Positions 1-57,050 of a stretch of 64,000 bases of DNA are shown here, in pieces; within the stretch, counting starts at the first letter, position 1, and every line of letters starts with the position of its first letter. Source of the DNA: a virus. The stretch lies in UHGV virus genome UHGV-0023958; one strand, written 5' to 3'. Position numbers and translations under genes: made by a program. The notes below the pieces were generated by a model that saw only the letters and a list, made by a program, of their open reading frames with translations, ran no database searches and had not been told where the DNA came from.

Positions 1-174
1 CAAGAAATTGACTTAACAAAAGAGGAAAGAAGAGCTTTGGTTGAAATTGATCTTTTGAAAGAAGAAGTCTTGTCAATTAAAAGAACGAAGACGGAAGCAG
101 GAAATATCCGTTATGGATTATCAAGCGAAAAAGAACGCCGTATGCATGGAATAAGTCGTGCACTTGTGGCATAA
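1..174 (+). CDS. 3' end of an upstream gene (5'-truncated at the window edge), product unknown. It may be the 5' exon of an intron-split gene.
   Basis: Frame 1 is open from the window edge to TAA at 172-174 (…EEVLSIKRTKTEAGNIRYGLSSEKERRMHGISRALVA*). No domain recognised. Confidence 0.4.
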   Translation, partial: QEIDLTKEERRALVEIDLLKEEVLSIKRTKTEAGNIRYGLSSEKERRMHGISRALVA

Positions 175-1830
175 TAAATAAACCACTCGATTAAATGAAA
201 TCTGATTGACTCGAAGTTCCAGAAGTGGATAACGAGGCGCAAGCGTAATGGTAGCGTGAGAGAGCAAGTGATTTCAGAGCATTTCGATGCTTGTGCAGTG
301 CTCCGAACTATACGATATAACAAGATGAAACGTATGAGAATGGCGGAAACGACCATTCATTATTATTAAATTTTACTTAAAGGATTTAGCATTTATGATA
401 GGAATATATAAGATTGAAAATATTGTAACTAAAAAATGTTATATCGGTCAATCTAAAGATATTTATCATAGATGGACTAAACATAAAACGGCATTAAGAT
501 CAAATACGCATTGTAATAGACATTTACAAAGTAGTTGGAATAAATATGGAGAAAATAGTTTTGATTTTTCTATTTTAAAAGTATGTAAATAGGAAGAGTT
601 GGATTGTTTTGAGAAATTATTTATACAAAAATATAATACTATTGAAAATGGATATAATTTGGATGCTGGTGGAAATGGAGTTCCTGGATTTAAACACACA
701 AAGGAACAATTGGAAAAAATGATAAAAATCCAAAATCCTTTTCCAGTATTACAATTTGATTTTTAGTTTAATTTAATTAAAGAATATTTGAGTGTTTCTT
801 AGGCATCGAAAGAAAACAAATATACCAAAGAATGTATTCTTAGGTGTTGTGAGCATACAAGAAAAGATAAATTATTTTATAAGGATTCATATTGGGTTTA
901 TAAATATGAATATGAAAACGATAATTTTTCATGGAAAAATTATTTGGGTGGAATTTGGTCATGTGAAAAGAAAATAAAAAATAAGAATACCAAAAGAAAT
1001 CGTAAAATAATACAATATTCTTTAAATAGAGAAGTAGTAAATATTTGGGAAACATTTAAAGATATAGAACAAGCTGGATTTACACGAAATCAAGTTTTAG
1101 ATATTTGCAATCATAGAAAAAATAAGAAAAATCATAAGGGATATTTATGGGCTTATGAAGATTATGATTTTTCCGATGGATATTTTGATAATCTCGAAAA
1201 GAAATACACATCTTCAATGATAAAAAGAATGAAGCAGGTGTTGGCAATAGATAAAAATAAAAATATTATAAGAATTTTTGTTTCAATTGCTGAAACTTGT
1301 GATTTTTTAGAAATAACACATAAAAAATTACAGACGATTATTAAAAATAGAAAATATATCAACAATATGTTTTTTGCTTTTGAAGATGATATTTGGTTTA
1401 ACTATATTGATGAAAGTGATTTAAATATGTATATTTCTGAATCTAAAAAGAAAAAAATATTTTTAAAAATTGATGATAATGGAAATATAATATCTAAATA
1501 TGATAGATTATTCTAGGCTGCAAATGAAAATAATGCAAGTTCTGCAAATATATGTAGGGCTGTTCAAAATCATAAAAAATGTGCAAATTTTTATTGGGAT
1601 GTAAAATTTATTAATAATTAACAAAAATAGGACGATAGAGCGTACTGTTTCGCAGCTTTCTGTTATTTGTTATCACAATTACGAAGAAAAGACGCTCTCG
1701 GCGGTAATGATGTAAAGCAAGATATGTCTGCTTTATATAAACACGCACCAGGACAAGTCAGTAAAGCATATAAGAAAAAAGTCAATCCATTTTTGGGTTC
1801 AAGAAATCCTTTTGCGAGGAGATATTAATT
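175..1830 (+). mobile_element. Putative group I intron carrying a GIY-YIG homing-endonuclease ORF. The alternative is a freestanding endonuclease with structured flanks.
   Basis: The flanks 175-394 and 1622-1830 are GC-enriched (about 40% against about 33% overall) on either side of the endonuclease ORF. An R-like element TTCAGAGCATTTCG lies at 273-286 and an S-like element AAGATATGTCTG at 1719-1730 (consensus AAGAUAUAGUCY). The two could form P7 (GA(G)CAU/AUGUC with a bulge). A frame stays open downstream to 1828, just before the next gene. Confidence 0.3.
395..1621 (+). CDS. GIY-YIG homing endonuclease (I-TevI/Seg-like) with C-terminal NUMOD-like DNA-binding repeats. It contains 4 in-frame TAG codons.
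   Basis: N-terminus GIYKIENIVTKKCYIGQSKDIYHRWTKH is the GIY-YIG signature. The TAG at 590 falls inside the conserved nuclease domain (…LKVCK-TAG-EELDCFEKLFIQKYNTIENGYNLDAGGNG). Further TAGs at 764, 800 and 1514, all in frame 2. The repeats IIQYSLNREVVNIWETFKDIEQAGFTRNQVLDICNHRK…KGYLWAYED and …ANICRAVQNHKKCANFYWDVKF match the NUMOD/IENR pattern. True stop TAA at 1619-1621. Confidence 0.75.
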
Positions 1831-1833
1831 AAG

Positions 1834-2211
1834 ATGTGTTTTGAATTATTTCTGGATTTAAGTAATGTAAAGTTAAGCGAAATAATGAAGATTAAATTTA
1901 TCGACAATATGATTGCAGATGATAGCAATTTATATATATGGTCAAATGACGAAAGTATCGATAAAAAGAAACTTTTGTCGAAATTAAAACGAATTGGAAT
2001 AACAGATGTATACTGTAAAGAGTTATCTTTAAAAGATGTTGATTGCAGAAACGATTTTGTTTCTACTTGGTTTCACGAACAGTATACAGAAAGTTATTTA
2101 AAGAAATTCGAATCAGAACATCAACGAGAATTGGTGGATATGCAAAAAAATATTCAAAAAGCAAAAGATCTTATAAAACAGAGAATTGCTTGCGAACAAA
2201 AAGAGGGATAA
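1834..2211 (+). CDS. hypothetical protein
   Basis: 125-aa ORF with GAGGAG upstream and a TAA stop. Confidence 0.4.
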   Translation: MCFELFLDLSNVKLSEIMKIKFIDNMIADDSNLYIWSNDESIDKKKLLSKLKRIGITDVYCKELSLKDVDCRNDFVSTWFHEQYTESYLKKFESEHQRELVDMQKNIQKAKDLIKQRIACEQKEG

Positions 2212-2312
2212 ATTCCCTCTGTATTAGGTATTGGTGTAAGTAGCACAAAACGGTTTTGGTCCAAATCCAAAATACCTATTCAAATTAATATAATAAAAAG
2301 GGAGGTCTGTAT

Positions 2313-4235
2313 ATGGCGAGTTCCAATAATACGGAGAAGAAGAAAGTCGGAAGACCTAAGAAAGTACAGGCTATACCTGTTGTAAATGAAGAAGAAAAGA
2401 AACTGCGTATGGAAGACAGTGGCGATGATTTTATTACTGTTGAAGATTTACGCAGAGATTTAACTTCTGTTTATCAAAAAGTTTATGGTTATTACACAAA
2501 GGAAGGCGTGCAAGGAAGTCTTGTAGATTGGAATAAATATAATCCGTTTTTGCAAGAAGACAGACTTAGACAGACTTTAACTGCACAGGGAAAGCAACTT
2601 AGTAAAGAAGATTTATATAAAGCGATATCAAATCCAGATGGTAGTGAAAATGCTTTACAGGGACAATCGTGGCAGGAGTCTTTTAATCAATATCTTTATT
2701 ATAAGATGATTAGAATGTCAGCAGATGTTCCTCTTTATAAGCATTATATTACACCAGAATATTTAGAAGCAAAAGATTATAACTCAAAAGATTTTAAAAA
2801 AGAAGATAAATATGTAAGAAAATGGGTTAAAACGTTTGATATTGTTAAAACATTAAAAACAACAGCCTTGGAAGTTAAACGCGCTGGTAAAGCGGCTTAT
2901 CTTCTTAGAAATAGCGTTGATTACGAAAAAGGGGAAGTAAATTATTGCACTTGGCAAAAGCTTCCAGATAATTTTATCAAGATTACTGGGATTGGAGAAA
3001 AGACGTATCTGGTAAGTTTAAATATGTTATTATTTTTAAATCCCGTCTTCTCGTTAGATTACTATCCTCCTTATATAAGAGATATTTTCGATGATATGAT
3101 CAACAAAGGGGTTATTTCTCCGAGTGAGTTTGGACCAAATGGAAACGTTGTGAGATATTCTTTAAACTCAGAAGAATTTTACGATTATAATAACGCAAAC
3201 GGTATCAAACAAATTGTTCGTATGGGGCGTAAAACAGATTATATGTTTTGGGTTCAATTACCGCAAGAAGTTTGTTATGTATTTTCATCAGATGCTTCTC
3301 ACCCTTGGAAGATTCCAGATACAACTGGACTTCTGGGGCAATTGAGAGAACTTTCGGACTATGCAACTTTGGCTGGTTTGATTGCAAGTACACCTTTAAC
3401 AGCGTTGCTTACTGGTGAAATTGAGCCGATTTCAGATGCTCGTCCTGGTGCAAACCAAAGTATTTTCGGTATTGAAGAAATTACTGGTGCCGTAAATAAC
3501 TTTAATGCCATTACATCAACAAACGTAGAAGCACTTGGCTTGCCTTTAAAAAATATTAAATTACAAAGTTTACCTTCGCAGCCAAACAGTTCTGATCTTG
3601 TTACAAAAGCTACACAGAACGTAATTACAATGGCTGGAATGGGTGGTTTGATTGCTGCAACAGATAAACCTTCTGTAGCACAAGTTAAAGCAGCACAATA
3701 TCTTGAAGAAGCGCAGGAAGATTATGTTACAAGACAGTTTGAATCTGTATTAAATTATATTATAAACCACTTTATTGGTTGTAAATACGAATGGAAATTA
3801 CATCTTTGGGGTGGTATATTTACATTCGGAGATGATGTGGCGCGTATGAAGGAGATGTGGCAAGGCGGTGCTACTTTCTTAATGCCGCGCATTGCTTCGG
3901 CATTTGATATGGATTTGCACGAAGTAAAAGCAACCGACGCATATATTAAATCGTTAAATGTTTATGATGACTTTGTTACAGTAACGCAACAAACCAGAGT
4001 AGATGTAAAAGGAAATGATGACTCTTCGACAAAAGAAAAGGTTGGGAGACCTTCTAAAACAGAATCAGAAATTGACAATGACAATACGGCAAAATCAATC
4101 GATCAAGGAACAAATACTGGCGATATGAGAGACTATGTAAAAATGTCATTGGAAAAAGGCAAGTGTGTAATTTGTGGCAATGATTCTGATGGAATTTTGT
4201 GCGAAGAATGTGCTGAAAAATATATGGAGGTTTAA
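2313..4235 (+). CDS. Putative portal protein (640 aa) with a C-terminal CxxC…CxxC zinc ribbon.
   Basis: GGGAGG ribosome-binding site. The size and the position upstream of the protease/scaffold and capsid genes suggest a portal. No diagnostic motif was seen, so the call rests on position. Confidence 0.4.
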   Translation: MASSNNTEKKKVGRPKKVQAIPVVNEEEKKLRMEDSGDDFITVEDLRRDLTSVYQKVYGYYTKEGVQGSLVDWNKYNPFLQEDRLRQTLTAQGKQLSKEDLYKAISNPDGSENALQGQSWQESFNQYLYYKMIRMSADVPLYKHYITPEYLEAKDYNSKDFKKEDKYVRKWVKTFDIVKTLKTTALEVKRAGKAAYLLRNSVDYEKGEVNYCTWQKLPDNFIKITGIGEKTYLVSLNMLLFLNPVFSLDYYPPYIRDIFDDMINKGVISPSEFGPNGNVVRYSLNSEEFYDYNNANGIKQIVRMGRKTDYMFWVQLPQEVCYVFSSDASHPWKIPDTTGLLGQLRELSDYATLAGLIASTPLTALLTGEIEPISDARPGANQSIFGIEEITGAVNNFNAITSTNVEALGLPLKNIKLQSLPSQPNSSDLVTKATQNVITMAGMGGLIAATDKPSVAQVKAAQYLEEAQEDYVTRQFESVLNYIINHFIGCKYEWKLHLWGGIFTFGDDVARMKEMWQGGATFLMPRIASAFDMDLHEVKATDAYIKSLNVYDDFVTVTQQTRVDVKGNDDSSTKEKVGRPSKTESEIDNDNTAKSIDQGTNTGDMRDYVKMSLEKGKCVICGNDSDGILCEECAEKYMEV

Positions 4236-5717: not shown

Positions 5718-7475
5718 ACGATGAAATTTGAGCTGAACTCCAAACAGCTCAAATACAGGGATATATTAAATAAAGAGTTCTTAGAACTTGAGGTTTGGGC
5801 TATTTCAGATATTAACCCGAACAGAAACAATAGTCACTTTACAAAAGAAAGTATGGAAAATGCGTTATCGACTTTTAAAAACAAACCAATTGTCGGCTTG
5901 TTTCAAAAAGATGATTTTGTTGACCATGCTGGAAAGATAGATTACGATAACGAATTACATAAACAGTTTTGGAACGTTGAAAGTGGTGAACGAATTCTTG
6001 GTGTAATTAGAGAAAGCGATCCTGTTGAACTTGTTGAAAAAGACGGCTTAAATTGGATTAAATTCAGATGTATTTTATGGGTTCAATATTGCTATAAACA
6101 AGTACGAAAATTATTAAAAGACAGAACAAAGAAAGTCTCTGTCGAAATCACAATCAAAAATTCGGAAGAAGATGAGAAAGGTGTGTTGCAAATTAACGAG
6201 TTTGTCCTTAACGGCGTAACAATTCTCGGTACAAAAAATGGACGAAAAGTAATAGAGGCTATTCCAGATGCTCACCTTTCAATATTAGAAGATTTGGAAG
6301 AAAATGAATCTTTTAATGAACAAAAGAAAATGTTGACATTTGCGTATCAACAAATTGATACGACAGATGATAATCAATATTATAATGAAGACAAGGAGGT
6401 AAAAATGGAAATGGGTTCTATTAAAGTTAATAAATCCAAAGAAGCTATGTCCGATAAAGACTGGGGTTCGGTAGATAAGACGGCTTTGAGAAAGAAAGTT
6501 GTTGAAGCCGAAAACTTTAAAGAAATCGCTGATGATATCTTTCTTGATCTTCGTGAAGGCTGGGAAGACGGTGAAGTTTCAAAGTTAAAATATCCAGTGA
6601 TGGAAATTAATGGCGATGAAGCTGTTTATAATCGCGGCGGTCTTGGTTCTGCTAAAGCTTATGCCGAAAAAAACAACGAAACAGAAGTTTTGTCAAAGCT
6701 TAAAAAGATTTATGAGCATCTCGGCTTGAACGAGGATGAAGAAGAATCTTATGCTTGCGAAGACTTCTGCGATGATTACGAAGAACAAAAACCCGCCGAA
6801 GAAGATGAAACGCAAAAGTGTTCGGAAGAGCCTGAAGCGGATAAACCAAAAGAGAGCGAAGAACAGTGCAGCGTTGTTTCCGAAGATGGTAAATGTTCTG
6901 CTGATGACGAGCATGACGATGATCATCACGACGATGATGACTGTGATGATTGCGATCCTGAAGGCAAACCAGAAGAAGAGTGTAAAATGAGTGAAGAAGA
7001 AATTTGTGAACTTAAAAAAAAATGTTCTTCTTATGAGGAAAATCTTTGTAAATTACAGGAAAAATGCGAAGCTTACGAGAAAGAACTTTGCGAGTGCAGA
7101 GAAAAGCTCGAAGGTTGCAAAGATTACGAAGATATTAAATCTCGTTTGAGCACTGCCGAAGGAAAACTTTTCGACATTTTCTGCAAAGAGATGGTTGCCG
7201 CCGCAGAAGAAATGATGGCTGGCAAAATGCTTATTGACGAAGATAAAGAAGAAATTAAAATGAAAGCTTCCAAGGGCGAATATGCTTCGAAAGAAGAAAT
7301 TGCCCGCGCTGTTGGATATGCTATGTTTAAAGCAGCTCCAATGGGACAGAAAGAAGAAAAGAAAGATGGGTGCTATGCAATGCCCGTTTACTCGCCTTTT
7401 GAAACAACGGTTGAACCGAAGAAAGAAAAGACGAGATCAGAAAGACTTGCTAAATATGCAGGTATTAAAGAATAA
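5700..7475 (+). CDS. Prohead protease (HK97 S78/U35-like N-terminal domain) fused to an acidic, Cys-rich coiled-coil scaffold-like C-terminal region.
   Basis: N-terminal pattern …NPNRNNSHFTKESMENALSTFKNKPIVGLFQKDDFVDH…ILGVIRE…EKDGLNWIKF resembles prohead proteases. The C-terminus is D/E/H-rich (DDEHDDDHHDDDDCDDCD) with a periodic Cys/coiled-coil stretch. It lies immediately upstream of the capsid gene. Confidence 0.5.
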   Translation: MENEIKTMKFELNSKQLKYRDILNKEFLELEVWAISDINPNRNNSHFTKESMENALSTFKNKPIVGLFQKDDFVDHAGKIDYDNELHKQFWNVESGERILGVIRESDPVELVEKDGLNWIKFRCILWVQYCYKQVRKLLKDRTKKVSVEITIKNSEEDEKGVLQINEFVLNGVTILGTKNGRKVIEAIPDAHLSILEDLEENESFNEQKKMLTFAYQQIDTTDDNQYYNEDKEVKMEMGSIKVNKSKEAMSDKDWGSVDKTALRKKVVEAENFKEIADDIFLDLREGWEDGEVSKLKYPVMEINGDEAVYNRGGLGSAKAYAEKNNETEVLSKLKKIYEHLGLNEDEEESYACEDFCDDYEEQKPAEEDETQKCSEEPEADKPKESEEQCSVVSEDGKCSADDEHDDDHHDDDDCDDCDPEGKPEEECKMSEEEICELKKKCSSYEENLCKLQEKCEAYEKELCECREKLEGCKDYEDIKSRLSTAEGKLFDIFCKEMVAAAEEMMAGKMLIDEDKEEIKMKASKGEYASKEEIARAVGYAMFKAAPMGQKEEKKDGCYAMPVYSPFETTVEPKKEKTRSERLAKYAGIKE

Positions 7476-7591
7476 TTGTTAAAACATAAAGCGGTTATAA
7501 ATTATAATCGTTTTTTTAAATTTGTTTTCTATGCGTGGATAAGCTACGCGTGAAAATATTATAAAATATATTTTATAAGGAGAAAGAAATT

Positions 7592-8152
7592 ATGGCTATT
7601 AAAGTTTTTGCTTGTGCTGAAATGGCTTCTGAAGATGTTCAGAGCTATTGCGTAAGTGCTAAATTCTATGCCGACGATGCGTATGCGAAAATCCACGACG
7701 GTGCGCTCGTTGTTCTTGGCGATCTTGACACAAATGATGCGTATGGTACGCCCGACTACAATATCTACAAGGCTACTAAACCCACTGCTGCTGCAGACGA
7801 GGTTGTTATCGTTGACCTTGCTGGTATCAACGAAGCGACGGTCCAGGGCAACATCATGAAGATTGGTAACAAGCTTGTTGATCTTGAAGCTGGTGAAGGT
7901 ATTGCGGTTCGTTGCCGTAGACTTATTAAGGGTGATAGAATGTGGATGGGCAGAGGCCTCTTTACAGCTGCTCCCACCGTTGGTCAGTTTGCTGGTACGA
8001 CAGCAAATAACACGTTGCTTACTCCCAGCCAGGATGCTCCTGCAGCTGGTCTTAAACTCAAAGTGCTTGCTTCCAAAGGTCTTACCGTTGGTCAGTCGGC
8101 TTATGCGGAAGGTGCTGGTTACGAACAGCTTTACCTCTGCGAAGTAAAATAA
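7592..8152 (+). CDS. Putative head decoration or auxiliary capsid protein.
   Basis: Elevated GC and codon bias suggest a highly expressed structural gene. It sits between the scaffold and the capsid gene. AAGGAGA site. Confidence 0.35.
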   Translation: MAIKVFACAEMASEDVQSYCVSAKFYADDAYAKIHDGALVVLGDLDTNDAYGTPDYNIYKATKPTAAADEVVIVDLAGINEATVQGNIMKIGNKLVDLEAGEGIAVRCRRLIKGDRMWMGRGLFTAAPTVGQFAGTTANNTLLTPSQDAPAAGLKLKVLASKGLTVGQSAYAEGAGYEQLYLCEVK

Positions 8153-9393: not shown

Positions 9394-10890
9394 ATGCAGA
9401 ACATTGATAGTGAAAAAATATATCAATATTATATTATTGAAAATCATTCTCGTCAAGAATCAGCTTCGATTTTTGGTATTTCGGAAAGCAAATTAAAAAA
9501 GATTTGCTCTGATAATGGTTGGAAGAAGGATAGAAAACTTCATAATCAAAATATTGGAAAATCGAAAGCTTATAAATTTGATAGAGTAAATGAATTAAAA
9601 CAATTATATATTGATGAAAATAAAACCAGAAAAGAAGTTTGCGAACGTCTTGGCTTGTCTCTTGCGGTATTTAAAAGGATTTGTCGTGAAAATGACATTG
9701 GAAAAACAGACGAAAATCGTATTTTTAATACAAACAAAACAATTTCAGAAAAATATGGCGAGAGTAATTTTGGGAAATTAACTTCAAGAGAAGAAATAAT
9801 TAACAAAAGAAAACAAACTAATTTGAAAAAATATGGGTGTGTTAACCCAACTCAAAACGAAAAAATTCAAGAAAAAATGAGGTTGTCTAATTTAAGAAGA
9901 TCACCAAATAAATCAAGTATTGGATTGACAATAGAAGAAGTCAATAACATTGTTTCTTCTAAAGATAGTTTTGAAAAATTTGTAAAAGATAGAGATGTTC
10001 ATACGACAGTTCAAATAGCAGAAATGCTTGGATATGGTCTTTCTGCAATAGAGCAATATATTGCTTTTTATAATTGTAGAGACTTAATAGATCCTATGAG
10101 TTCTGCGCCAGAACAGGAAGTAAGATTATTTATAGAATCTCTGGGTGTTAAAACAGAACATACCAGACAGATAATTCCACCTTATGAAATAGATATTTAT
10201 TGTCCAGATTATAAAGTCGGAATTGAATTCAACGGAACGTATTGGCACTCTTCTTTGAGAAAACAAAAATCTTATCATGAAGATAAAGCGAAAGCCGCTG
10301 AAAGAGCAGGTATTCGTTTGATACAAATTTATCAATATCAATGGGAAGATGAAAATTTAAGAGAAATACTTAAATCTGTTTTGAAAATTACATTCGGCAA
10401 AGTTGATTCTCGTATTTATGCAAGAAATTGTGAAGTTAGAGAAATAACAAACGAAATTGCAAAACCTTTCAATAATAAAAATCATCTTCAAGGGCATAGA
10501 AATGCAGCAATAACCTATGGTTTATATCATAATAATGAACTTGTTCAACTTATGAGTTTTTCTAGACATAATAAATATGAATGGGAAATCATCAGAGGTT
10601 GTCCTGGTTCTAATAATGTTGTTGTTGGCGGAGTTTCAAAACTCTTTAAACATTTTATAAAAAATTATAATCCAAATCAAGTATTCAGTTATTGTGATTT
10701 TAATACTTTTGACGGAAAAGGATATGAAGCAATCGGGATGAAGTTTATTGGATATACCGGTCCAGATTTGCGATGGATTATTAACGGCGATGTTAAGCAT
10801 CGTAGTCCGTCACACCATAAAGAATATAAAGAAAACGCAGAAGCCGTTATATGGGGCGCGGGCTCTAAAAAATATTTATGGACAAAATAA
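9394..10890 (+). CDS. DNA-binding protein with a C-terminal DUF559/Vsr-like (PD-(D/E)xK superfamily) endonuclease domain. It looks like a freestanding homing-endonuclease-like moron.
   Basis: …YEIDIYCPDYKVGIEFNGTYWHS…HEDKAKAAERAGIRLIQIYQY matches the DUF559 pattern (xIVDFYCP…EVDGxxH…D..R…L…G..VLR). Two HTH-like repeats sit at the N-terminus. The gene has its own promoter and terminator. Confidence 0.5.
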   Translation: MQNIDSEKIYQYYIIENHSRQESASIFGISESKLKKICSDNGWKKDRKLHNQNIGKSKAYKFDRVNELKQLYIDENKTRKEVCERLGLSLAVFKRICRENDIGKTDENRIFNTNKTISEKYGESNFGKLTSREEIINKRKQTNLKKYGCVNPTQNEKIQEKMRLSNLRRSPNKSSIGLTIEEVNNIVSSKDSFEKFVKDRDVHTTVQIAEMLGYGLSAIEQYIAFYNCRDLIDPMSSAPEQEVRLFIESLGVKTEHTRQIIPPYEIDIYCPDYKVGIEFNGTYWHSSLRKQKSYHEDKAKAAERAGIRLIQIYQYQWEDENLREILKSVLKITFGKVDSRIYARNCEVREITNEIAKPFNNKNHLQGHRNAAITYGLYHNNELVQLMSFSRHNKYEWEIIRGCPGSNNVVVGGVSKLFKHFIKNYNPNQVFSYCDFNTFDGKGYEAIGMKFIGYTGPDLRWIINGDVKHRSPSHHKEYKENAEAVIWGAGSKKYLWTK

Positions 10891-30571: not shown

Positions 30572-31060
30572 ATGGCTTTATCATAGAAAGATGTTCACCT
30601 TGATTTAGGGTTATTAAAATCTTTAAATAAAAAAGATTTAGAAGACGCTTTAAAATATTTAACTGAAAATCTTGAAAAGATTTTTAAAAGTAATATAGAA
30701 GAAGTTTATAGGATAAATACTTCGGTTTTAAAAGGAAATTACGTTCCATTAGAAGAAATGTTATCTGCTGTTACAGTAGTATATAATATGCATCCTCCTT
30801 CTTGTAAAATATACATAGATGAAGATAAAATCACTTGGAAAGATTCTGAGGGCGAATCTGTACATAGTATTCCTTTAAACAAACAATATTACGATGGGTT
30901 TGTTACAAAAGAAGTTAAAACTTTAAATGAATATTGGATGTTGCCTATATCTTCAATACAAGAAGAATCTTGGATTATTGATAGAACTTATAAGGGAATA
31001 GTGGAATTTATTCAAAAAGAGTTTGTTCAATATATTTCTAACAAATTAAGGAGGAAATAA
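30572..31060 (+). CDS. possible second tail chaperone with an in-frame TAG at 30584
   Basis: AAGGAGG site and ATG at 30572, in frame with the ORF starting at 30758. Confidence 0.4.
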
Positions 31061-31062
31061 TA

Positions 31063-34000
31063 ATGGCGGATAAAAAGGAAATCGAAATTAAATTGAATTC
31101 AGATGATATTATCAAGCAAATAGAAAAAGGCATTCAAGGAGTTTCTTTTGATGTTAAACTTGACACTGATTTTGGTAAACATGAATATGTCGCTCTCGAT
31201 AAAAAAGTTTAGGAATATTTAAAAAGCAAAAATGCAGTTGTTATTTCAGCTACACAGTTTGCGCATTTAATGGAAACTGGTTATGCAAGTTTTGAAGCAG
31301 AAATAAATGACTTAGAGAAGAAAATTAAAACATCAACCGGTGAAGAAAAAACAAAATTAGAGCAAAGATTAAAAGATGTAAAGAAATTTAGCGAACAAAG
31401 CATGAATAAGGCACATGTTGGTACTGAAATCCATAAACTTCTTGAGTTATAGGAGAAGGGGTTTATTGATTTAAACAAAGAGAGAGAATCTTTAAATAAA
31501 ATCTATGCTCAAATGAATAAAGATAAAAACTCTTTGCAAGAATTAAGGACATTAGTAGGTTCATCATCTTTTGTTACTGATAATAATTTCAAAAAAGCTT
31601 TTAGAAGAGCGCAAGAAATGAATAAGATGAGGGTTTCTGCTGGTATGACTGGAGGTCAAGCAGAAACCGCCCGCGCTTTTGCTTATATTCACAATGGGAA
31701 ATTATATATTGCTGCTGGTGCAACAGATTGGACAAAAACTGGAGGTATGTATGATAAGATCGGAGATTATAAAACAACTTCAGAGTTTAATCCGGTTCAC
31801 AATTTAATTCAAACAGCCGTCAACGCCAATGCGATGCGCGCTGCTTCTGGAAATAAAACAAGAGATGTTAAGGGATAGATTGTTCATTTACCAGTTACAA
31901 AAGATAGAAACCTAAATCAATATACAGCTGGCATGGTGTATAATATATCTACTGGAAGCTGGGAAGAAAATATGGCTTTAATACAAGCTCTTACAGATGT
32001 ATATGAGGGTAAGGGCGATAGATCAAACATCAAAATACCAGGAAGATACACCGGTGGCGTTACAAGTGGAACATATACAGATGTAACTGGGGCAGAAAAA
32101 ACCGTAACATATTGGAATGGTAAAACTTTAAAGAAATGGCTAAAAAGCGATCAAAAAGATATGGAAAGTATGATCTCTTCATTATCTTTAGAGGATAAAA
32201 ATCATTTTTTGAGACTATTGTTTGGGCAAAGTAATGGAAATTTTTGGTATACAATTGGTTCTAGTAATGAGTTGAGAAAAAAATATAAATCTCAATATGA
32301 CTAGATTGTTGCGAATAAAGAAAATAGCAATTACTATCTTCAAGACATAGGTGGTTCTTGGGAAATCGGAGAAGATGGTAGTTGGAAATTTATTCCAAGA
32401 GAAAGTACTTCCGAAAGTAGATAGAAAGCATCTAAAAATATGTATAATAAAGATTGGTGGGAAATCGCATAGGAATAGGATGAAAATAGACTAATTAATG
32501 ATTTTTCTAATAACAGAAAAGATATAGATGAACAAACGGCGGCACAAATGGTCCCAGTTGCCTCTAGAAGATTAGCAAGAATTATAGATTATTCTAATAA
32601 AGTAGATAGAATCACTCAAGAAATAATTAAAAGAAATCCAGAGTTAGAAGGTAGGGATGTTGAAGAGGTTTCAAAAGAATTTTTAAAAGCTACAAATCCA
32701 AAAAATTTAGATAGATATCTAAGATCAAAGGAGCTTTTAGCAGCTTTCCCGAAGGAAGGAACAGATCAAGAAAAATATGAATTTGCATATCAAGGTTTAA
32801 GAGAAGATTCTAATGAGGAATCCAAACTTAAAAATATGCTTTATATAATTGAACAGGCTGGATTATTAGACAAAGTAAAGTCCGGATACATGGATTGGGA
32901 AAAATATTTTTTTAAACAACAAAAATCGATTCCTTATTCTGTTTTAACATCAATGGCTACGGGTAAAATGCTTGGATACGAAGAAGATGAGTTGAGGCCA
33001 GAGTACGCGGAACAGAGGTCTTAGATAAAAACATTAACATAGGTTGATGAAAAATATATCTCAGATATGAAGAATCAGATGGGAGATGAAATATTATCTA
33101 CAGCAGAAGACGAGATTGATTTTTTTAAAAGAAAGATATCCGAACTCGGTAAACAAAAAGGATTGGATGAAGACGCAATAAATTCTGCATTGGAGAAAGT
33201 CGATTATGCTGTTGAAGATACCGCTGCATAGAGTATTGAAGATGTTTAGAAATATATAAATAGCCAATATGATGCAAGTGAAATTGAATCTTTTGAAGCT
33301 TTACATGAAGCAATGGGTGTCGGGGAATTTTCTGGAGAAGAAACACCATTACAAGAAGAATTTGAAAATAGTCAAGATAATCTTTATCAACAAATTGATG
33401 AAAAACAAAAAGAATTCGAGGCAATTTATAGAACGCAAGTATAGGCATTTAATGATTATATTATGTATATGGCCAAAGATATGCTTTCTCTTGCCAATGA
33501 AATAAATGAAAATAGCAAAAAAAATAATAAAAAAAATCAATAGAAGAAGAAACAGACAATTGATCAAGAATCTAAAAAAATTGAAGAATCTTCTAAAGAA
33601 ATTGCACAAAATATTGTTAATAATGCTATAGATAACGCAGTCAAACAAACAGAAGAGGTTGCGCAAATATATACATCGTCAGCAAAAATTTCCAAAGAAG
33701 AAAATAAACCTGTTTTAAAAGACGGTGTTTATGTTTGGTCTAGAACTGGTAGAAGATTATCCGCAAAACAACTTTCTTCACGTGGTTTACAAAATAATCC
33801 TCCTTCTGGAAATATTCAATATTTTGGTGGCCCAATTCCAGTTTATCCAGCTGGTCAAGGTGGAGAATTAGATCCAAATAAAACATATAGAGAAACTGGT
33901 ATAACGGTTGATGCCGAAAATAAGATAGTAAGTAGAACTTTAAAAGAAGTTCAAAAGAGACAAGACGGTGGCAAGCGTGGATCGTCTCAGCTTGATGTAA

Positions 34001-37000
34001 TTAAACAGATCAAAGAAGACACTGGAAAAATTGTAAATATAATGGAATAGCAACCACCCGTTTCTGGTGGTGGTATGCCACCAGAGATTCCAACTACCGG
34101 TGGCGGAACTTCTGGCGGTAGTAAGAAAGGCAAATCTAAAGAAGATAAGCAAAAAGAAAAAGAAGATAAACAGGTTGAAGCTCAAAGAAAAAAAAATAAT
34201 CAAGAATACGCAAAAGCCTTAAAGACAGAATACGATTATCAATTGAAGATTGATGATGCAAGACGTAAGTCCAATATAACTTCCGGTAGAGAAAGAAAGT
34301 CTTAGCAAGAATTTATAAAAGTTGCACAATAGCAATTGAAAATAGCACAAGCAACAACTCAAGAAAGAAGAAAGGCTGTTACAGATAAAGATGCTGCGCT
34401 TATTGAATCTGGCTTACAAGGTCAGTTTTCTGTTAAACGTGCCGCAATATATACAAAAGATAAAGGTGCACGTAATATATTCGACCTTATGGGCGATGAT
34501 ATCAAGAGAGCTTTTTAGAGAATTACAGATTTTGGTGTGGCTGCTCGTATTTTGAATAAAGTTCAAAAAGAAATTGCTAATGTATATCAAAATATATTGA
34601 AGCTCAATGAAGCAATGACAGACATTCGTATTGTAACTGGTGCGAGTGTTGATGAAGCGAATTCTTTAATGACTAGTTATAATAAACTCGCAAAAGAACT
34701 TGGCACAACAACAACCGAGGTTGCAAAGTCTGCAAGCGAATGGATGCGTCAAGGCTATACTGCAAGCGAATCTGTTAATTTGATTACTTCTTCTGTAAAA
34801 CTTGCTCGTCTAGGCTTCATGGATATGAGTTCCGCGACAACATCGTTGACGGCTGTTCTTAAAGGTTTCAATCTTCAAGCTACTGAATCATCTAAAATTG
34901 TTGATAAGCTTACAAAACTCGATGCCGAATACGCGACAACAGCTGGCGATATCGCTAACGCATTATCAAGAACGGCTGCTGCCGCAAAAGCAGCCAATCT
35001 CGATCTCGATCAAACTGCAGCAATGCTTACTACAATTATTGATATTACGCAGCAAGATGCTGGTAGCGTTGGTAATGCTTTAAAGACGATTTTGTCAAGA
35101 TATGGAAATGTTAAAGCTGGCGTATTTGCTGGAATGGCAGAAGATGGGGAAGACGCATCTGAAAGCATAAACGATGTTGAAAAGGTGCTGAATGCGATTG
35201 GTATTCAGATCCGTTCGACTTCAACAGAAATGCGTGGTTTTGATGAAGTCCTCGATGATTTGGCTGAAAAATGGGATAATTTAAACGATGTCGAACAAAA
35301 CGCCGTTGCAACTGCTATGGCTGGTGTAAGACAGCGCAACCAATTTTTAGCCTTGATGCAAAACTACAACCAATATAAAGAAAGTTTGGAATCTTCTCGT
35401 ACATCTTCTGGTACGGCAGATGAAAAATATGCTGCGGTTATGGATAGCATTGCTACTTCTATGCAAAAAATACAAACTGCGTGGGAAAGTTTTACACAAA
35501 AACTTCAAGCGAGTGGATTTGTAAAAACATTCTTTAAGGCAATTGCAGGTGTTGTTGAAAATATTGATAAGATACTTCCAAATATTGTGGCGATGTTGAC
35601 GGCTATTGCTGGAAAACACCTTCCAACTATAGGAATGAAGGTCCAAGGTTTATTTGGCGGTGGAAGTCGTATGGGGAAAGGTGTCAGAGCTGCTTTCGGA
35701 CGAAGTGGATCATTTGAACAAGAAAGTTTAAGAGAACTTGCAGAATACAAAAAAGGACTTGGCTATAAAGATGAGGAACTTTCTGAAGCAGAAAGAAAAA
35801 TCCTTGGTTCTGGGCACCAAGAAAATACCGCAGATGATAAAACAGCATCCAATACCGATTAGATTAAATCTGATGTTTCTACTATAAAGGCTTATTTACA
35901 AAACAAAAAAGCAGGAGGTGCTACCACTCCGAATACTGGAGATGATACAAATCAAAACGTAGAGGCTGGTGGCAGTCAAAAAGTTTCTAATAAAAAAGGT
36001 AAAGCTAAAGGAACAAAATTTTTAAAAAAAGCTAGAATAGCCTCTGGTGTTACGACTGGAATAGCATCGGGACTTTCTTCTGGTATGACTGCTAATTATG
36101 GTGATTTTACAAGCACTGCTGACAAAATATTTACTGGTGCTGCTTCTGGTATATTTTCTGGTGTTGGAACCGCTCTTGCTGGTCCTATTGGGGGTATCAT
36201 AGGCACGGCGTTTGGATAGAAAATCGGTGAGATATTTTATGGACAATTTCACAAAGAAGAAATTGCTCGTCGCAAACGTGTTGATGAAGCTAAGAAGCAA
36301 CTTGAAGCTACTCAAAAGGTAGAATCTGCAATTACCTCCGCCGAAGAATTAATAAGCAAAGATAGAAGCGAATGGGGTTCGGAAGAGTATAAGCAAGAAA
36401 AAGAAGTAATTGACTAGATGCGACTTGGATTACAAACTTCAAGCACATTAGCAGAAAACTTTGCAAAACTTTCTGGTAAGCCTACCGATGTTTCTGATTG
36501 GCTTCTTAAGTTATCTTCTGATTTAACATAGCTTGATAAAAGCGTTATTGCAAATTATCGTGCGGCTCAAATTTTGACGGAAGCGCAAGAAACATATAAA
36601 GCTGGCGAAGAAGATCGTGCGGCGTTATATGATAAGCTTGGAAGTGCAGAAGCTTCCATGCTTAATCAAATTCAGAACATAGATTCTGCTTCTTCGGAGT
36701 ATCTTGAAAAACATAAAGAATATGAGAGCAAATACGGGAGGACAGTTGAATCTGGTATTGCTTCAATGCAACAAGCGCAAATGCAATTAGATGCGTTTAC
36801 TGATGCGTTGCACGAAGGATATATGCAAGCCGCATTTTATTCTTCTGGGGTTTCTCAAATGTCTTCGACGGATATCGCCGGGGCGAGTCTCGATAGAGTT
36901 GTTGCCGAGGTCGCTCGTGCTTGGGCGGCAAGTGATGCTACTGCTTTAGTGTTTGCTAATGGAATGCTTTTGGATAGTGCAAGAAAATAGATTGTAGCGT

Positions 37001-39387
37001 ATTTAAAAACACAATCTGATTTTACGTCATTAACAAAATCTCCTGGTGGAAGTTTCCGAGAAATATTAGATGCTAGAGATGATATTGGAGATTATTTAAA
37101 TAAAACTGGTAATGATTATACCAAATTAAAAAATATAGTCAATCAACAAGATTTTAAGAAAATAAGAGAATTTTTTGGATATGATTCTAAGGATACAACA
37201 AAAGATTCTTATATTAAAGATATAATTGATAAAATCAATAAAGCTGATCCAACAAATATTGAATTGATTGCGCATGGATTAAACATGACTGTTGAAGAAG
37301 CAGAAAAACTCAAAGATGTTATAGGAACAATAACCCTTTCTGATATTTTAAACGGAGCGAACAAACTTTTAGATAAGTTTGACGAATTAAATACGATTCT
37401 TGGAGAGATTAGCGATAATGATATTTTATCTCCAGATACAATGAATAAAATAGTCAAGAATTTTCCAAATTTATTAAAAGGAACCGATGAAAGTGGAAAT
37501 GTTACTATATCAAGAGATAACATTATAAGAAATCTTACAAAGTAGATTACAGATCCAAATGGTACTTACGCAACTGGATATATTGGTAAAGTGGCAACAG
37601 GAGCAAAAACCGAATCTAAATACTGGGATTTATTTAAAGATGTTGCTGATTAGTATTTTACCGGAGATACGCTTAAATAGATAATGAATTATAGCAATTT
37701 CGAAGGTGCGGAATCTATAATGATGAGACCGGAGAATAAGTAGGCATTGTAGAGATTTGGTGAAATAGTTGCGACTTCAACAGGGATTATTGATTAGCAA
37801 GAAAGAGCTAGAAATACATTAATTGAAGCGGAAAACAAATCTTTGGAAAAACAAATCGATAATTTACAATCCATTAAAGATTCAATTGGAGATATCAATA
37901 AACAAAGAGAAAAAGAGCTTAATTTAATAAAGGCTCGCGATGCGCTTGAAAATGCGAAAAAAGAAAAGAAGCTTGTTTATCGTGCCGGTATTGGATTTGT
38001 TGCTACGTCAGACTCTTCTGCAATATAGGAGGCTCAAAAGAAAGTTGATGATTTGCAAAATCAACAAACTCAAGAAGATTTACAATATCAAATAGATTAG
38101 CTTAATCAACAAAAAGCAATATTAGAGGCGATTAAGAATGATCCCAATATGGAGAGCTTAAAAAATACTGCGGAAATTATAAAAGATGAATTGATGTAGA
38201 AAACGCCAGGTGGTATTCTTGGGCTATTAAAAAATTTAGATCCAGAAACTTTTTCTGATAATGTTCGAGACGGCATTGTGAAAAGTATTACAGAAAAAAC
38301 GCTAGCCGTTGGGCAAGATACATACAGAAACATAAAGTTTTCGTTAGACACTTTGTTATAGGATTATAAAGATTTTTATGATACAAAAAATTATGAAGGA
38401 AGTGGACAATCTGTTCAATCTATTTTAGAAGATCCGTCAAATATTTATTTTTCTCGCGTTTCAAATTCAATAAAAGAAAAACAAAGTGCTATAGAAAGTA
38501 AGAAAAAAGAGCTAGATAATTTAAAAGAGAAGTATTTTTCTGGCGATAATAAATCGTTATTAGGAAGTTATGGCGGAGCAATTGAAAATATACAAAATTA
38601 TTATAAAGAAAAATATGGAACAGATGATTATTAGGATGTGTCAAAGTTAAAATTTAACAAAGAGGGTATTTTGTTAGATTTAGAAAATGCTTCTGGTGAT
38701 TATCATGAAAATTATTTTACAATGGTCAAATACACAAATGAGGCGGTATCCGATGATTCTTTTACCGATAATAAACATCGAAAATATAAAAAATCACCCG
38801 GTAAATCTTGGGAAAGCTTGGGTAAATCATGGAACGATATTGTAGAAAATGATTTGTTATAGCCGGGAGATTTCGTTTTAGTAGATTTAAAAGGAAATAA
38901 ACTCGCCTATGTTGGTGTTGATAAAAAATTATATTGGGTACAAACTAAAAAGCCGAAAGATTAGAGTTATGGTGGTTATGGCGATGTTAATGACACAACA
39001 AAAGGAAATAACCCCGATATAGATTATTCTAATATGCGAGCCAAAGGTGATTATAATTATCAAGGTGGCAACGTTCTCATTAACGAACTTGGTACAGAAG
39101 CTATTGTAACACCACAGGGTACGCTTACATCACTTCCTTCTCATTCTGGTATTGTTCCTGCCGATCTCACAAAGAATTTGTTTGCTCTTGGCGAGATTGC
39201 TCCAAATCTTATTGCGACTCTTCGTAATCAGATGCCAAATGTTTCTAAATCGAATTCTACTAGCAATGATAATTCTACGAATATCGGAACTGTTTATGCA
39301 ACATTTAATGCAGATAGCGGATTTGATATGAACAGATTTATGATCGACTTGCGCTCTGCCGCTGGCAACACAAGACACAACAACTAA
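31063..39387 (+). CDS. tail tape measure protein, 2,774 aa, a single frame containing 35 TAG codons
   Basis: Frame 1 runs continuously from ATG 31063 to TAA 39385-39387 with no TAA or TGA. The twelve ORF-track pieces are all in the same frame and are separated only by TAG. The segment 34537-35862 carries the tape-measure core pattern (…TEVAKSASEWMRQGYTASESVNLITSSVKLARLGF…) and Gly-rich hydrophobic stretches. Confidence 0.75.
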
Positions 39388-41737: not shown

Positions 41738-42064
41738 CATTTAAACCTCATATCCCGCTGGTGAAAAAGACGCTACGGTGCATCTGGTGTGATAACTGGC
41801 GGAACCGCCACTTTAAGTGATGGTACGAGTGTACCGATAACTATAACTACCGCCGAAGCATAATTCGGCATAAACACTTTATCTCCCTTTCCCCCAATTT
41901 GAGAGGGGAGGAATAATAAATAAAATTTAGGTTTTATTATACAGCCCAGTTTTTGTTCGGTTTTCTGTAAAAAAATCGAACACCAATAAGTTTGGGTGTG
42001 GCGAGTGAGATACCTCCCGCCCGCCACAACTCAATATAAAAAATAAAAGAGGAGGCAAGAGATT

Positions 42065-45000
42065 ATGGCAGTTTTTAAACCGACAAATTGTTCGCCGTAT
42101 TTAACATCTTTTGATATTACATATTTGAATGAAGGACCAATTTATTTTCAATGTAAAATAGATACGTCAAACACAAATATTGACGGATATGCTATAACTG
42201 TTTATGATAGTGATAATCATAAAATTTTTCCGCATAATGGAAACGCAGTCGATAATATATCATATATCAAAGATCTTCATTATGATACAACGAAGATTGG
42301 ATCGATTATTTCTGATGATGGAATTTCTGATTTAAACACTGGTTTAAACGGAAGTTATTTAAAAATTCCTTTTGTTGTAAACAATGGTTAGAATAGTTAT
42401 CTAACAAACACAACGAGAAAAAATGTTGTTGTGTATAATAAAAAAACAGACGGAAGTTATGAAATAAAAGATAATTCTGGAAATATCATTAAATTATATA
42501 ACGGAAATCAGTATAAATGGACAATAACTTTATATTAGCTCGGACAAGACGCTGTTGATAATAAGAAATCTAGGCCAGAAGAAATTAAATATTATGATAT
42601 GACAGTGGCTTCTGGCAAAATTCTTGGATCTACCAATGAAAGAATCCAAAGCTATCCGAGCGATCAAATTTATAATGATTACTTTTTACAATTATATAGT
42701 GCTCCAGTTGTTAATGTTGGTCCTGATTTTTAGATTACAAAAATTACAGGAGATGTAAAACAAGTTGGAACGAGGGTTAGAATTAAAGATTACGATTCGT
42801 ATCTCGGACACATGTATTTACAAACTGGACAAGATGGTTTGTCTGAGAAAAATTTAGATATATCAAATGTTTTCCAAGTTTTTAAAATGAGTAATAACCC
42901 AGATGATTTGGGCACAAAAGACAAAGTTGATTTTTGCATTAGTCAAAAATACTTTGTGCCAAAGTATTTCCAAGAATCTAAATCTGATTCATCGGCAGCA
43001 TATTTATCTCAAACATTTGTTATTGCAAACGTCACTGGTTCAAGTGCCTCTGAAACTTTGGAAAAAGTGAAAGATGTTTATAATAAGCCGTTTTTTGAAA
43101 ACACTGAAACTTTGTATGGTTTACCTTCATCTAATCAATATTACTCTAAAATTTTTAGTGGTTATGACGGAGACAATTCTCCCCCGGTTATATTTGGTTA
43201 GTCAAGAGTTTTATTGAATACGGAAAATAATAACAACGAATTAGATGAAAGTAGTGGGGCCGTAACTGGTACTAAGGATTATGGACCGAATGGAGGTAGT
43301 TCTAAGTTTAACGGTATATGGATTCCAAAAACACCAACTGTTGAAAAGATTGCAGAACATTAGAATGAAGGTAAATACACTGGAACAGATTATAAAATAA
43401 CAATTCAATGGTATCGTTCTTCTGATGCTGATACATGGGGAGAAATCACAAACAAAGTCGTTTTAGATACCAACAATTTCAACAGTGATTATGATTCGTT
43501 CGCAGGTCAAAATCTTCAAGCATATACTTCTGAGCAAGAAGGAGAGCAAGTTTCAACCGGTACTATTAATGATACGCTTATAAAATTTAACAACGAAGAA
43601 CCTGTTGAAATTTATTCAAATAATTCTTACGAACATAACTATGGATTTATTTATAAAAACAACATGGACATAACTGCATGGTTAGCGTCTATAACTGGTG
43701 AGACAACGCATGTACTAACTTATACATACATTTGTAAAAACACTTGGAGGGTAACTGGAAAGCCAAAGTGGCGCGAAGGCGATAATTTTAATGATTGGAT
43801 TGGAAATCCTATTTATTTTATAGAGAAAGATAATAATATATTTCAAGACAAGCATCAATATCAAATTTTAGCATATCGTAATCCAAGTAACTCTTACTTA
43901 CAAGCGGAGGTTAAGTTTAATTTAAATGAACAATATACTACTTATTATAGTGGGAATTATGGTTTAGATTGTTTTAATCCACCAGAGGAGTGGGAGAAGT
44001 GTGAAATACGCGTTGTTTGGAAAAATGATGCCGCAACAGATAAAAACTTAGATCTCCCAGAAGTTAATGATACAATTCAGTTTTTTATATATGATATAAC
44101 AACTGGAATTATTAATTTTATTTCTCCGTCTACAGCCGTGTCTGTTGGAGATAAAATATTCAATAAAGATAATTCTTCTTCGAATGTTGTGTTGTTAAAT
44201 AAAACTGTTTGGGCGATTGGACAAGAGCAAGATGTTTCTACATATAAATATAAAAACAATGAAGGTCGGTTGGTAGACTATAATTATTATCCGATTTTAA
44301 ACTTCAAAACAAACGATTTATATTCAATTAAAACATTCTTCCGTTCGAGCAGCGAAAATCAATTTAGTTTATATGAACGTCCAACTGTCGATTTAGAATT
44401 ATACGGCGTTTCAGGCGGTGCAAAGATAGAAATTAATGCTGCTGATAAAACATGCAAAACCTATGAGAGAAGTATTTTTGCATAGGCTATTTATAATCAA
44501 ACCAATTTGGTTCAGTGGAGAAATTATCAATGGTTTCTTTACGATGTTCCAAATATTTACGAAAACGCCGATGCGTATAAAACAGCAGCTGGATCTGCTT
44601 TGACAAAATATTTAAATCCGAATGATCTTATTTTGCAATCAGAAGTTGGTTATGATAAAGAGATAAAATATACGTTTTATGGTTTGGCAGAAGAACACCA
44701 TTGGTATATTATATCACTTGTTTTGACAGATCAATACGGAACAATTATTACAAAGAAAATTGCTGTTTATACTGATTTTACAGTGGAATTAGAACAAGAT
44801 AAAGATTGGGTTAATTATGGTCTTCGGTGTGATTTAACCGGCGTCGATATGTGGTTTGAAGATAAATACGGTTATATATATCCGAATTTGGGTGATAGAA
44901 ATTATTTGATAGAAACCAACAACAAATATGCAAACAATCCAAATGGCGTTACGTATTCTGATAGTGTTATGAATATATCTGATAACTCAGAAGGTGTTTT

Positions 45001-56227: not shown

Positions 56228-56240
56228 AGGAGTATTATTT

Positions 56241-57050
56241 ATGATACCTAATAAAACAAAAGCATCTGAATATAGGGTGCGGACATTAGATAGAAATGAT
56301 TTAAATGAGAAAGGAACGATTTATATTGGTTAGGGCGGTACTTCTACTATTGATAAAGTTGAAAATATTTCCAATGTAGCGGCAATTAGTAAGCCAGATG
56401 ATGATTTAAACAAATCTGGTTATTATGCTTTAACGCTTGGAGGAAATGCAAATCAAGATGGAATTTGGGGCAGATTTTTACATGAGGTAGATTGCCAAAT
56501 AACACCAACTTTATTTCAATTAAACGAAGGAGCGCCATCTCTTCATAATCCTTATAAATATGTAATTCGCGGTGGGTATAAGTCGTTAAATATTAAAAAA
56601 AGTATATTTGATTCAACACTTACATATATAATGGATTATAATTCAAATTTATCATCTTTTTCTTCTGTTGATTAGAAAATATTTGCAAAATTATCTATGA
56701 GGGGATTTGTAGAATATGATACTCCGTTTGAAGTATATTCTTCTTTTGTTGCCTCTCAGAAGACTGGAAGTTCTTGGGAGTTATATCCTTTGAATTTTTC
56801 ACCGATTAATATTACAAAATTAAACGATAATTATATGCGAAATTTCCAAAGCATTGTTTTTTGTTCAAATGATACACCGTGGCAAGAAACTGCGGATGGT
56901 TTTCAATTAAACCTTCATGCAATCGGTATGGGAAATACATTAGAAGAGCAAAAATTATATTATTAGAAAAATGGCACTGGTGAAATTCTAACTGCTAATC
57001 TATCAAATATTTCATAGATTAGAGTAACTCAAATGTCTATTATTTTTTAA
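56241..57050 (+). CDS. hypothetical protein with 4 in-frame TAG codons
   Basis: AAAGGAG site. Frame 0 is open to TAA at 57048, with TAGs at 56331, 56673, 56964 and 57015. The end abuts a terminator. Confidence 0.4.

Follow-up and report, generated by a model that had tools for sequence, protein, structure and literature searches.

A putative mobile group I intron with a TAG-containing GIY-YIG endonuclease gene in the terL gene of virus genome UHGV-0023958

Results and discussion

The start of virus genome UHGV-0023958 raises the question of whether a gene interrupted by a homing endonuclease gene is a gene in pieces, a broken gene, or a gene whose RNA is restored by splicing. The stretch analysed here (the window, 64,000 nucleotides, with the exons, the intron and its elements, and a transfer RNA gene on its + strand) begins inside a gene whose frame is soon closed, continues with a GIY-YIG endonuclease gene, and then shows a short open frame. 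A previous reading made from the letters alone (the sequence-only reading) had proposed that the endonuclease gene lies in a group I intron that splits the first gene. The comparison with intron-less relatives and with other members of the same RNA family indicates that positions 148-1630 are very probably a group I intron whose splicing would restore terL, the gene of the terminase large subunit (TerL).

Insertion in terL and intron-less alleles

A portal-based search provided 12 IMG/VR contigs whose portal is 92-99% identical to that of the window (2313-4235). None of the 12 carries 148-1630, and window positions 1-146 and 1631-2400 adjoin there with one base between them. In the intron-less contig L001, for example, these two segments match 7172-7317 and 7319-8088 with identities of 98.6% and 97%, respectively. 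The site lies there within a single uninterrupted open reading frame (ORF) of 555 codons (5849-7516), and its protein matches phrog_2, the terminase large subunit (E=1.2e-13, residues 10-514, over the ATPase and nuclease domains). The sequence-only reading had named two results that together would refute it, the lack of a covariance-model match and homologues in which the upstream gene stops at 174. The first was obtained with Rfam (see below), but the homologues show that the gene continues beyond 174.

The junction alignment places the insert at 148-1630 (1483 nt), after U147 and with G1630 as its last base (omega G), and not between about 175 and about 1740 as previously estimated. The 5' exon (1-147) contains the last 49 terL codons before the intron and ends in ATG CAT (M H), with U147 as the 5' splice-site U, whereas the 3' exon (1631-1828) holds the last 65 codons (DDRAYCFAAF...FARRY) and the TAA stop. 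Together, 1-147 and 1631-1828 correspond to one uninterrupted TerL ORF in the relatives. In-silico removal of 148-1630 gives ...M-H|D-D-R... exactly, and the joined exons read EKERRMHDDRAYCFAAF; the resulting protein is equal to that of L001 at the junction, with three conservative differences farther off. The junction is ATG CAC GAT GAT AGA (M H D D R) in 10 intron-less alleles and ATG CAT|GGAAT...AATAG|GAC GAT AGA in the window, so the differences near it are all synonymous (CAC>CAT and GAT>GAC). The first of them supplies the U without which no U·G wobble could form at the 5' splice site, and the second strengthens the pairing of the 3' exon with the guide (P10).

One intron-less contig, L007 (about 1719-1760), shows CAT GAC at this position, identical to the predicted spliced product of the window, while 10 others show CAC GAT. 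This could be the trace of a precise intron loss or of co-conversion.

The exon-1 frame is closed 25 nt into the insert, by TAA 172-174. This is the end that had been noticed from the letters, although the stop belongs to the intron and not to the gene. The exon-2 frame is open up to TAA 1826-1828, as had also been described, starting from 1631 instead of about 1682, with a TTG at 1667 and an ATG at 1723 within it. These frames suggest a first alternative, in which terL would be a gene in pieces with no splicing at all: a free-standing endonuclease cassette would separate an N-terminal fragment ending in ...MHGISRALVA (TAA 172-174) from a C-terminal fragment started within 1631-1828. The nrdA gene of Aeromonas phage Aeh1, split by mobE, is an example of such an arrangement. 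The stop shortly after the break and the available starts at 1667 and 1723 would fit it. Nevertheless, the break falls inside the conserved MHDDR block, and even the earliest start (1667) would lose DDRAYCFAAFCY. Moreover, a U at -1, a terminal G, and a synonymous CAC>CAT change would be meaningless for a split at the protein level.

Concerning the identity of the gene, the concatenated exon peptides had no match among 50,697 phage records (tblastn), and window 1-2400 matched only endonuclease fragments in the phage records (blastn). For TerL, nothing was obtained from Pfam and nothing usable from PDB sequences (phmmer). The HDD residues at the junction may represent the nuclease catalytic motif. 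For the portal of the window, the phage collection offers only a match of 24% identity.

RNA structure of the insert

Every structured RNA element maps upstream of the endonuclease ORF, at 143-358. P1 (143-162) pairs the exon U143-U147 (UGCAU) with the internal guide G158-A162 (GUGCA), with the wobble U147·G158 at the 5' splice site, and its pairs also form in the unconstrained minimum free energy fold. In the P1 loop, GUC (155-157) can pair with the 3'-exon GAC (1631-1633) as P10, of 3 bp only. P2 (166-185) is a hairpin with a GUGG/CCAC stem, whose loop holds two in-frame stops, TAA TAA (172-177), and this is where the frame of the upstream gene ends. The counterpart in L019, a contig with a distant terL, is a hairpin AUACGG/CCGUAU, also with an in-frame TAA in its loop. 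These stops would halt the exon-1 ribosomes ahead of the core.

The catalytic core extends over 196-304, within a match of the covariance model R1 at 193-310. It comprises P3 (196-202/270-276), P4 (210-213/233-236), P5 (218-221/226-229), P6 (237-240/254-257), and P6a (243-244/251-252), followed by P7 (260 and 262-266/299-304, with A261 bulged) and P8 (277-282/287-292), a closed 6-bp hairpin with a UUCG loop (AGAGCAU-UUCG-AUGCUU). J8/7 is GUGCAG (293-298). The order P7(5')-P3(3')-P8-P7(3') is the group I pseudoknot topology. The R-like element is thus found at 257-270 (UGAGAGAGCAAGUG) and the S-like element at 293-304 (GUGCAGUGCUCC); the R-like GAGAGACUAAGCG and the S-like AUGCGAUAGUCC agree with the group I consensus. 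The candidate guanosine site in P7 consists of G260-C304, the bulged A261, G262-C303, and A263-U302, the family consensus of the two strands being GAGAGACUA and UAGUCC. This bulged-A/G-C/A-U arrangement corresponds to that of the G-binding site of Tetrahymena (C262/A263/G264-C311/A265-U310).

Downstream of the core, P9 (309-314/331-336) and P9.1 (338-345/350-358, with a GAAA loop) were assigned from the fold, and the stretch 304-394 that contains them is more stable than expected (z=-3.2; 1 of 200 shuffles as stable). On its own, 136-394 folds with marginal stability (z=-1.7) and P6-P8 are mispredicted as a single long hairpin, which was set aside since the covariation overrules it. In the alignment, window 331-338 (CGUAUGAG), directly after P9, corresponds to the sequence GUGUGAG| with which ORF-less relatives end (UAUGAG at 333-338 in the window). 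The UGAG at 335-338 may be a vestigial proximal 3' splice site (G338).

The sequence-only reading had built its intron differently: from about 175 to about 1740, with P7 formed by 275-282 and 1724-1730 and the ORF in a P8-type loop. The two strings it quoted, TTCAGAGCATTTCG at 273 and AAGATATGTCTG at 1719, are present where it placed them, they resemble the R and S consensus, and they can pair; their roles are others. The presumed R element (273-286) is the end of the P3 3' strand plus the P8 hairpin, whereas the presumed S element (1719-1730) is exon sequence coding for K-Q-D-M-S-A, a chance resemblance that is also found in the intron-less relatives. The proposed 3' strand of P7 lies therefore in an exon, as 1631-1828 is present and coding in all intron-less alleles, and it is the strand at 299-304 that covaries with 260-266. 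An ORF in P8 does exist in the nrdJ relatives L014, L016, L017, and L038, where it follows directly after the 3' strand of P3, but P8 of the window is closed at 277-292 and the ORF comes after P9.1. Besides, cutting out 175 to about 1740 would not restore TerL, and the intron-less alleles refute this model.

The RNA family and its covariation

An exact 27-mer from 235-261 is present in five IMG/VR contigs, and a 24-mer of the core appears in 25 metagenome contigs, one of them (L029) being the window's own sequence. By blastn, the core stretch was also found in Roseobacter phage CRP-118, between two coding sequences that are both annotated as ribonucleotide reductase. The 24-mer had no match in 185,579 bacterial and archaeal genomes, and the family, with at least 23 distinct cores from phage metagenomes and CRP-118, appears to be limited to phages and metagenomes. 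Across about 18 kb, the core is missing from all 12 intron-less relatives.

Pairs were counted on MAFFT alignments, none of which was fitted to a structure, with slid partners and 500 shuffles as controls. In the alignment of 15 sequences (A3), 94.1% of the cells pair, compared with 40-43% for slid partners, with double changes at 18 of 26 pairs. When divergent members are included (A5, 23 sequences), 93.7% of the P3/P4/P5/P6/P6a/P7/P8 cells pair versus 36-44% for slid partners, and double, compensatory changes occur at 25 of 32 pairs, a value reached by 0 of 500 shuffles. P3 reaches 98.8% pairing, with covariation at 7 of its 7 pairs, and P7 reaches 100%, with covariation at 4 of 6. The window itself contributes GAGCA/UGCUC in P7 where the family has GACUA/UAGUC, that is, two compensated pairs. 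The covariance models R1 and R2, for which these alignments were the basis, have a single match in the window, at 193-310, with 103.6 bits (E=7e-22) for R1 and 104.8 bits for R2.

This core in the first ~210 nt, together with a P1 and a P10 complementary to both exon edges, argues against a gene in pieces, for which the lack of an Rfam covariance-model match could be claimed. The idea that a group I intron with an endonuclease gene splits the gene at the window start is supported by the intron-less alleles, the U at -1, the terminal G, P1/P10, and the covarying P3-P8 core.

Several contigs carry more than one intron core. In the nrdJ region of L015, about 400 nt separate two unlike group I introns, at 1524-1746 (-) and 2124-2240 (-); one is classical (Rfam, 114.6 bits) and the other belongs to the core family of the window and is missed by Rfam. 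L041 has four copies of the core within 4 kb (5850-5961, 6705-6831, 7862-8003, and 9640-9769 (-)), as might be expected of a gene, or a cluster of genes, with a heavy load of introns. Two copies each are present in L037 and L043.

Some features weigh against an intron that is spliced out of terL. Splicing is inferred here from sequence, and the intron-containing allele is known from one sequence, that of the window, versus the intron-less relatives. A distance of 1.27 kb separates the 3' splice site from the core, and the site is marked only by the 3-bp P10 and a short motif shared by the window, L019, and L022 (UAACAA, 2-5 nt, AU[UA]G; window 1617-1630). The three TerL introns, when their last 140 nt are folded, show no special 3' terminal structure. 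P6 is near-invariant in most members, because these were gathered with the exact 24-mer, and its support comes from a few divergent ones. Furthermore, the Rfam group I model RF00028 (Intron_gpI) gave no match at E<=10 in the whole region or in either half (1-3000, 120-394, and 1622-1850), nor did the Rfam scan find Intron_gpI on the family in the ORF-less relatives, in CRP-118 2380-2900, or in 19 related loci.

The gathering score of RF00028, 50 bits, is a detection criterion and not a defining property of group I introns. In the divergent member L043, the core at 1845-1963 (73 bits with R1) coincides with a sub-threshold Intron_gpI match (26.5 bits, E=0.007), whose alignment assigns the same R, P3, P8, and S elements as the family model. 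It has also been described that RF00028 misses subgroups absent from its seed (PMC11878797). The missing Rfam match was thus treated as a limit of sensitivity and not as a refutation.

Endonuclease gene and TAG recoding

The GIY-YIG homing endonuclease gene (395-1621) has 408 codons, a TAA stop, and a Shine-Dalgarno sequence AAAGGA at 380-385. PF01541 recognises its GIY-YIG domain at residues 2-88 (43.7 bits, above the cut-off of 22.6), with the catalytic residues GIY 3-5, YIG 16-18, R26, E73, and N85/N88, and the protein also matches phrog_7168 (E=9e-25) and phrog_314. Only 9 nt separate the end of the ORF from the 3' end of the intron. The GC content of the ORF is 23.4%, compared with 33.6% in the window, 37.7% and 36.4% in the flanks, and 41.9% in the core (148-338). 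The sequence-only reading was right that a GIY-YIG protein starts at 395 and that the flanks are richer in GC than the genome, the latter only slightly, since the main contrast is the low value of the ORF; the frame is nevertheless not open in the standard code. Under code 11 it contains four in-frame stops, all of them TAG (590, 764, 800, and 1514), none TAA or TGA, and no frameshift over its 1227 nt.

TAG is evidently a sense codon in part of this genome. A suppressor transfer RNA (tRNA) with anticodon CUA is encoded outside the intron, at 58611-58685 (ARAGORN). A 2781-codon frame at 31042-39387 is open only with 35 TAGs as sense, and another one of 1384 codons at 42047-46201 has 8 in-frame TAGs. 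The same reading of TAG concerns the region 56217-57050. Genes near the window start (the portal and others) have no internal TAG. The acceptor end of tRNA-CUA shows U1 opposite C72, G73, and G2-C71/G3-C70, features that we take to fit glutamine identity in E. coli. In the endonuclease, the internal DNA-binding repeats have E or Q before an A, and it is at this position that two of the TAGs occur (IEQAG, IAETC, SVS*AS, and RLF*AA). Given the Gln-like acceptor end and the TAGs at Q/E positions of repeats, TAG probably stands for Gln.

In-frame TAGs are also present in the relatives' own terL. Both L001 (about 5807-5809) and the distant L019 (about 1180) have one, about 13 codons before the GKS of Walker A (...WTK*RAIWVCSRNAGKS), and in L001 the Walker A motif (...CSRNAGKS) lies just upstream of the TerL ORF, past this TAG. 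Consequently, ORF finders place the start of TerL too late. A second intron upstream in the relatives' terL had been suspected, as the ORFs begin after Walker A, and was ruled out, since the frame runs on through the TAG.

These data bear on a second alternative, namely that the element is dead or decaying: the ribozyme and/or the endonuclease would be non-functional, the TAGs would be nonsense mutations, terL would be broken, and the genome would be a defective variant. The four in-frame stops of the standard code would agree with this, as would the finding of the allele only once among 13 relatives and the J8/7 GUGCAG, which departs from the family AUGCGA although the 24-mer core is identical to that of other members. 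However, the stops are TAG without exception, and this gene of 23% GC has no TAA, TGA, or frameshift; the genome has tRNA-CUA and many long TAG-containing frames, the relatives' terL has a TAG in frame as well, and the two TAGs at [E/Q]-A positions fit Gln. Regarding the RNA, all core helices are intact, P7 differs by two compensated pairs and not by mismatches, and the exon changes at the junction are synonymous only. This alternative is therefore considered improbable. The endonuclease frame is open if TAG is sense, which tRNA-CUA and the other TAG-rich frames support; with only TAG as stops and no frameshift, the gene is probably intact. The presence/absence polymorphism among genomes that are at least 92% identical, and the occurrence of the intron with its ORF in three TerL lineages, bear on homing and are consistent with movement into intron-less terL alleles.

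Other insertion sites of the family

P1 with a U·G at the splice site was also found at L019, L022, and L028 (CRP-118), with junctions set by protein homology. The TerL of L019 is 34% identical to that of L001 and is cut at the same site, ...KMH|DDR... Its insert has the same core and a 43% identical GIY-YIG ORF, with a 7-bp P1, a 5-bp P10 (GAUGA/UCAUU), and a terminal G. L022/L023 (core 2700-2819, related GIY-YIG ORF 3001-3930) represent a third TerL lineage, where the insert is shifted 10 nt downstream relative to the window and interrupts the Tyr codon behind DDRA after its first base, with the P1 GUGCCU/GGGCAC and a terminal G. This suggests that the MHDDRAY coding region of terL is a recurrent homing target. 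In all 10 loci found through the endonuclease protein, the same RNA core lies about 100-180 nt upstream of the ORF, whose product is a relative of the endonuclease at 43-44% identity.

The smallest member is found in the nrdJ gene of the cultured phage CRP-118 (L028 2437-2608; OR420741, about 35054-35225). It is an ORF-less insert of 172 nt with a U at -1, a terminal G, and a 7-bp P1 (AAUCCGU/GCGGAUU). Removing it restores GTNP-C-SEIILRPYQFCNL in a class II reductase of 634 amino acids, the restored junction reading GTNP-C-SEIILRPYQFCNLTE with the Cys codon rebuilt from T+GC. To our knowledge, this intron is among the shortest group I-like introns. It is unannotated and splits the reductase between GTNP and C-SEII. 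ORF-less family members that split nrdJ within the NPC active-site motif are a further argument against a terL gene in pieces, an explanation that, taking all of this together, is very improbable.

Proposed mechanism

According to the intron interpretation, a mobile group I intron would interrupt the conserved C-terminal M-H-D-D-R block of TerL, entering terL just after the His codon and before the first Asp codon. In the pre-mRNA, the exon UGCAU would lie on the guide GUGCA (P1, U147·G158), and a free guanosine bound in P7 (G262-C303 beside the bulged A261) would attack after U147. The 3'-exon GAC would then dock on GUC 155-157 (P10), and the 3'-OH of U147 would attack after G1630, so that CAU|GAC would be joined and a full-length TerL could be produced. 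The ribozyme would be confined to the first ~210 nt, and the GIY-YIG gene would occupy a 3' extension that reaches from P9.1 to the 3' splice site. The endonuclease would be translated from its own AAAGGA/ATG, only when tRNA-CUA reads its four TAGs, and would presumably cut the intron-less terL of co-infecting relatives, whose repair would copy the intron in. The polymorphism of the insertion, the exact restoration of the exons, the U and G at the splice sites, the covariation of the core, and the endonuclease domain are shown by the computation, whereas catalysis, homing, and the timing by amber suppression are what we infer from these features.

A broader proposal is put forward only tentatively. 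The core could define a compact group I lineage outside the current covariance-model libraries, with at least 23 cores and the 172-nt nrdJ intron of CRP-118 as its minimal form. In the window this would be combined with a mobility gated by the genetic code, the endonuclease being produced only once tRNA-CUA is active, and with a 3' splice site 1.27 kb off that has almost no local structure and possibly competes with an ancestral G338.

Comparison with known systems

The intron in the T4 nrdD gene (sunY), which encodes I-TevII, reportedly has a compact 5' core, an endonuclease ORF downstream of it, and a 3' splice site about 1 kb away. The intron of the window is organised likewise, with the core first, the ORF after it, and a distant 3' splice site, whereas the host gene, the endonuclease, and the RNA sequence are others. 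Furthermore, sunY has structured P9.1/P9.2 elements after the ORF, unlike the window intron, which has only 9 nt there and no detectable 3' structure. The T4 td intron with I-TevI is also similar, as a phage group I intron with a GIY-YIG enzyme made of an N-terminal catalytic domain and C-terminal DNA-binding repeats, inserted in a conserved region coding for a catalytic site and homing into intron-less alleles, a behaviour that is presumed for the window intron. On the other hand, the td ORF is looped out of P6 and the ORF of the window follows P9.1, and the similarity between I-TevI and the window endonuclease is at the family level only (PF01541; phrog_314 and phrog_7168).

Phage terL genes are already documented as hosts of group I introns that encode homing endonucleases, and the window intron would add a member. 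They occur in the terL of Twort-like staphylococcal phages. Bacillus phage SIOphi and other Bastillevirinae also have them, and the SIOphi TerL intron self-splices in vitro (PMC11878797); roseophage DSS3_VP1 carries one as well (PMC8323127). The terL introns of SIOphi, DSS3_VP1, and the Twort-like phages share with that of the window the host gene, a conserved packaging gene as homing target. They are nevertheless detected by Rfam/GISSD models and mostly encode HNH or VSR-type nucleases, whereas the window intron is missed by RF00028 and encodes a GIY-YIG enzyme in a TAG-recoded phage.

For a group I intron endonuclease of the 'Agate' gut phages, it has been proposed that reassigned in-frame stops hold back its production as long as the suppressor is missing (Borges et al., bioRxiv 10.1101/2021.08.26.457843). 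The reassigned codon is TGA (Trp) in those phages, with an early host gene, in contrast to TAG and the late terL of the window, which itself contains TAG in relatives. The window could thus serve as a TAG/terL example for this proposal. Alternative coding and group I introns in core genes also occur together in crAss-like gut phages (Yutin et al. 2021, PMC7886860). In their Delta group, TerL typically holds inteins, in contrast to the intron of the window.

What is less ordinary about this locus is that Rfam misses its RNA lineage, that this lineage includes a 172-nt intron in a cultured phage, that the endonuclease would depend on TAG being read, and that the 3' splice site is so distant. Gene callers will end terL prematurely at 174, break up the endonuclease, and add a small orphan ORF at 1667-1828, whereas the correct product after the predicted splicing would be a full-length TerL, and terL is the standard phylogenetic marker of tailed phages. 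The core, which would define a group I lineage invisible to RF00028, is also unannotated in the isolated phage CRP-118. Moreover, the terL MHDDR(A)Y region shows two insertion points 10 nt apart across three lineages.

Finally, between terL and the portal gene lies an ORF of 125 codons (1834-2211), for which PHROG yields no family (E>0.06) and which is about 97% conserved in all relatives.

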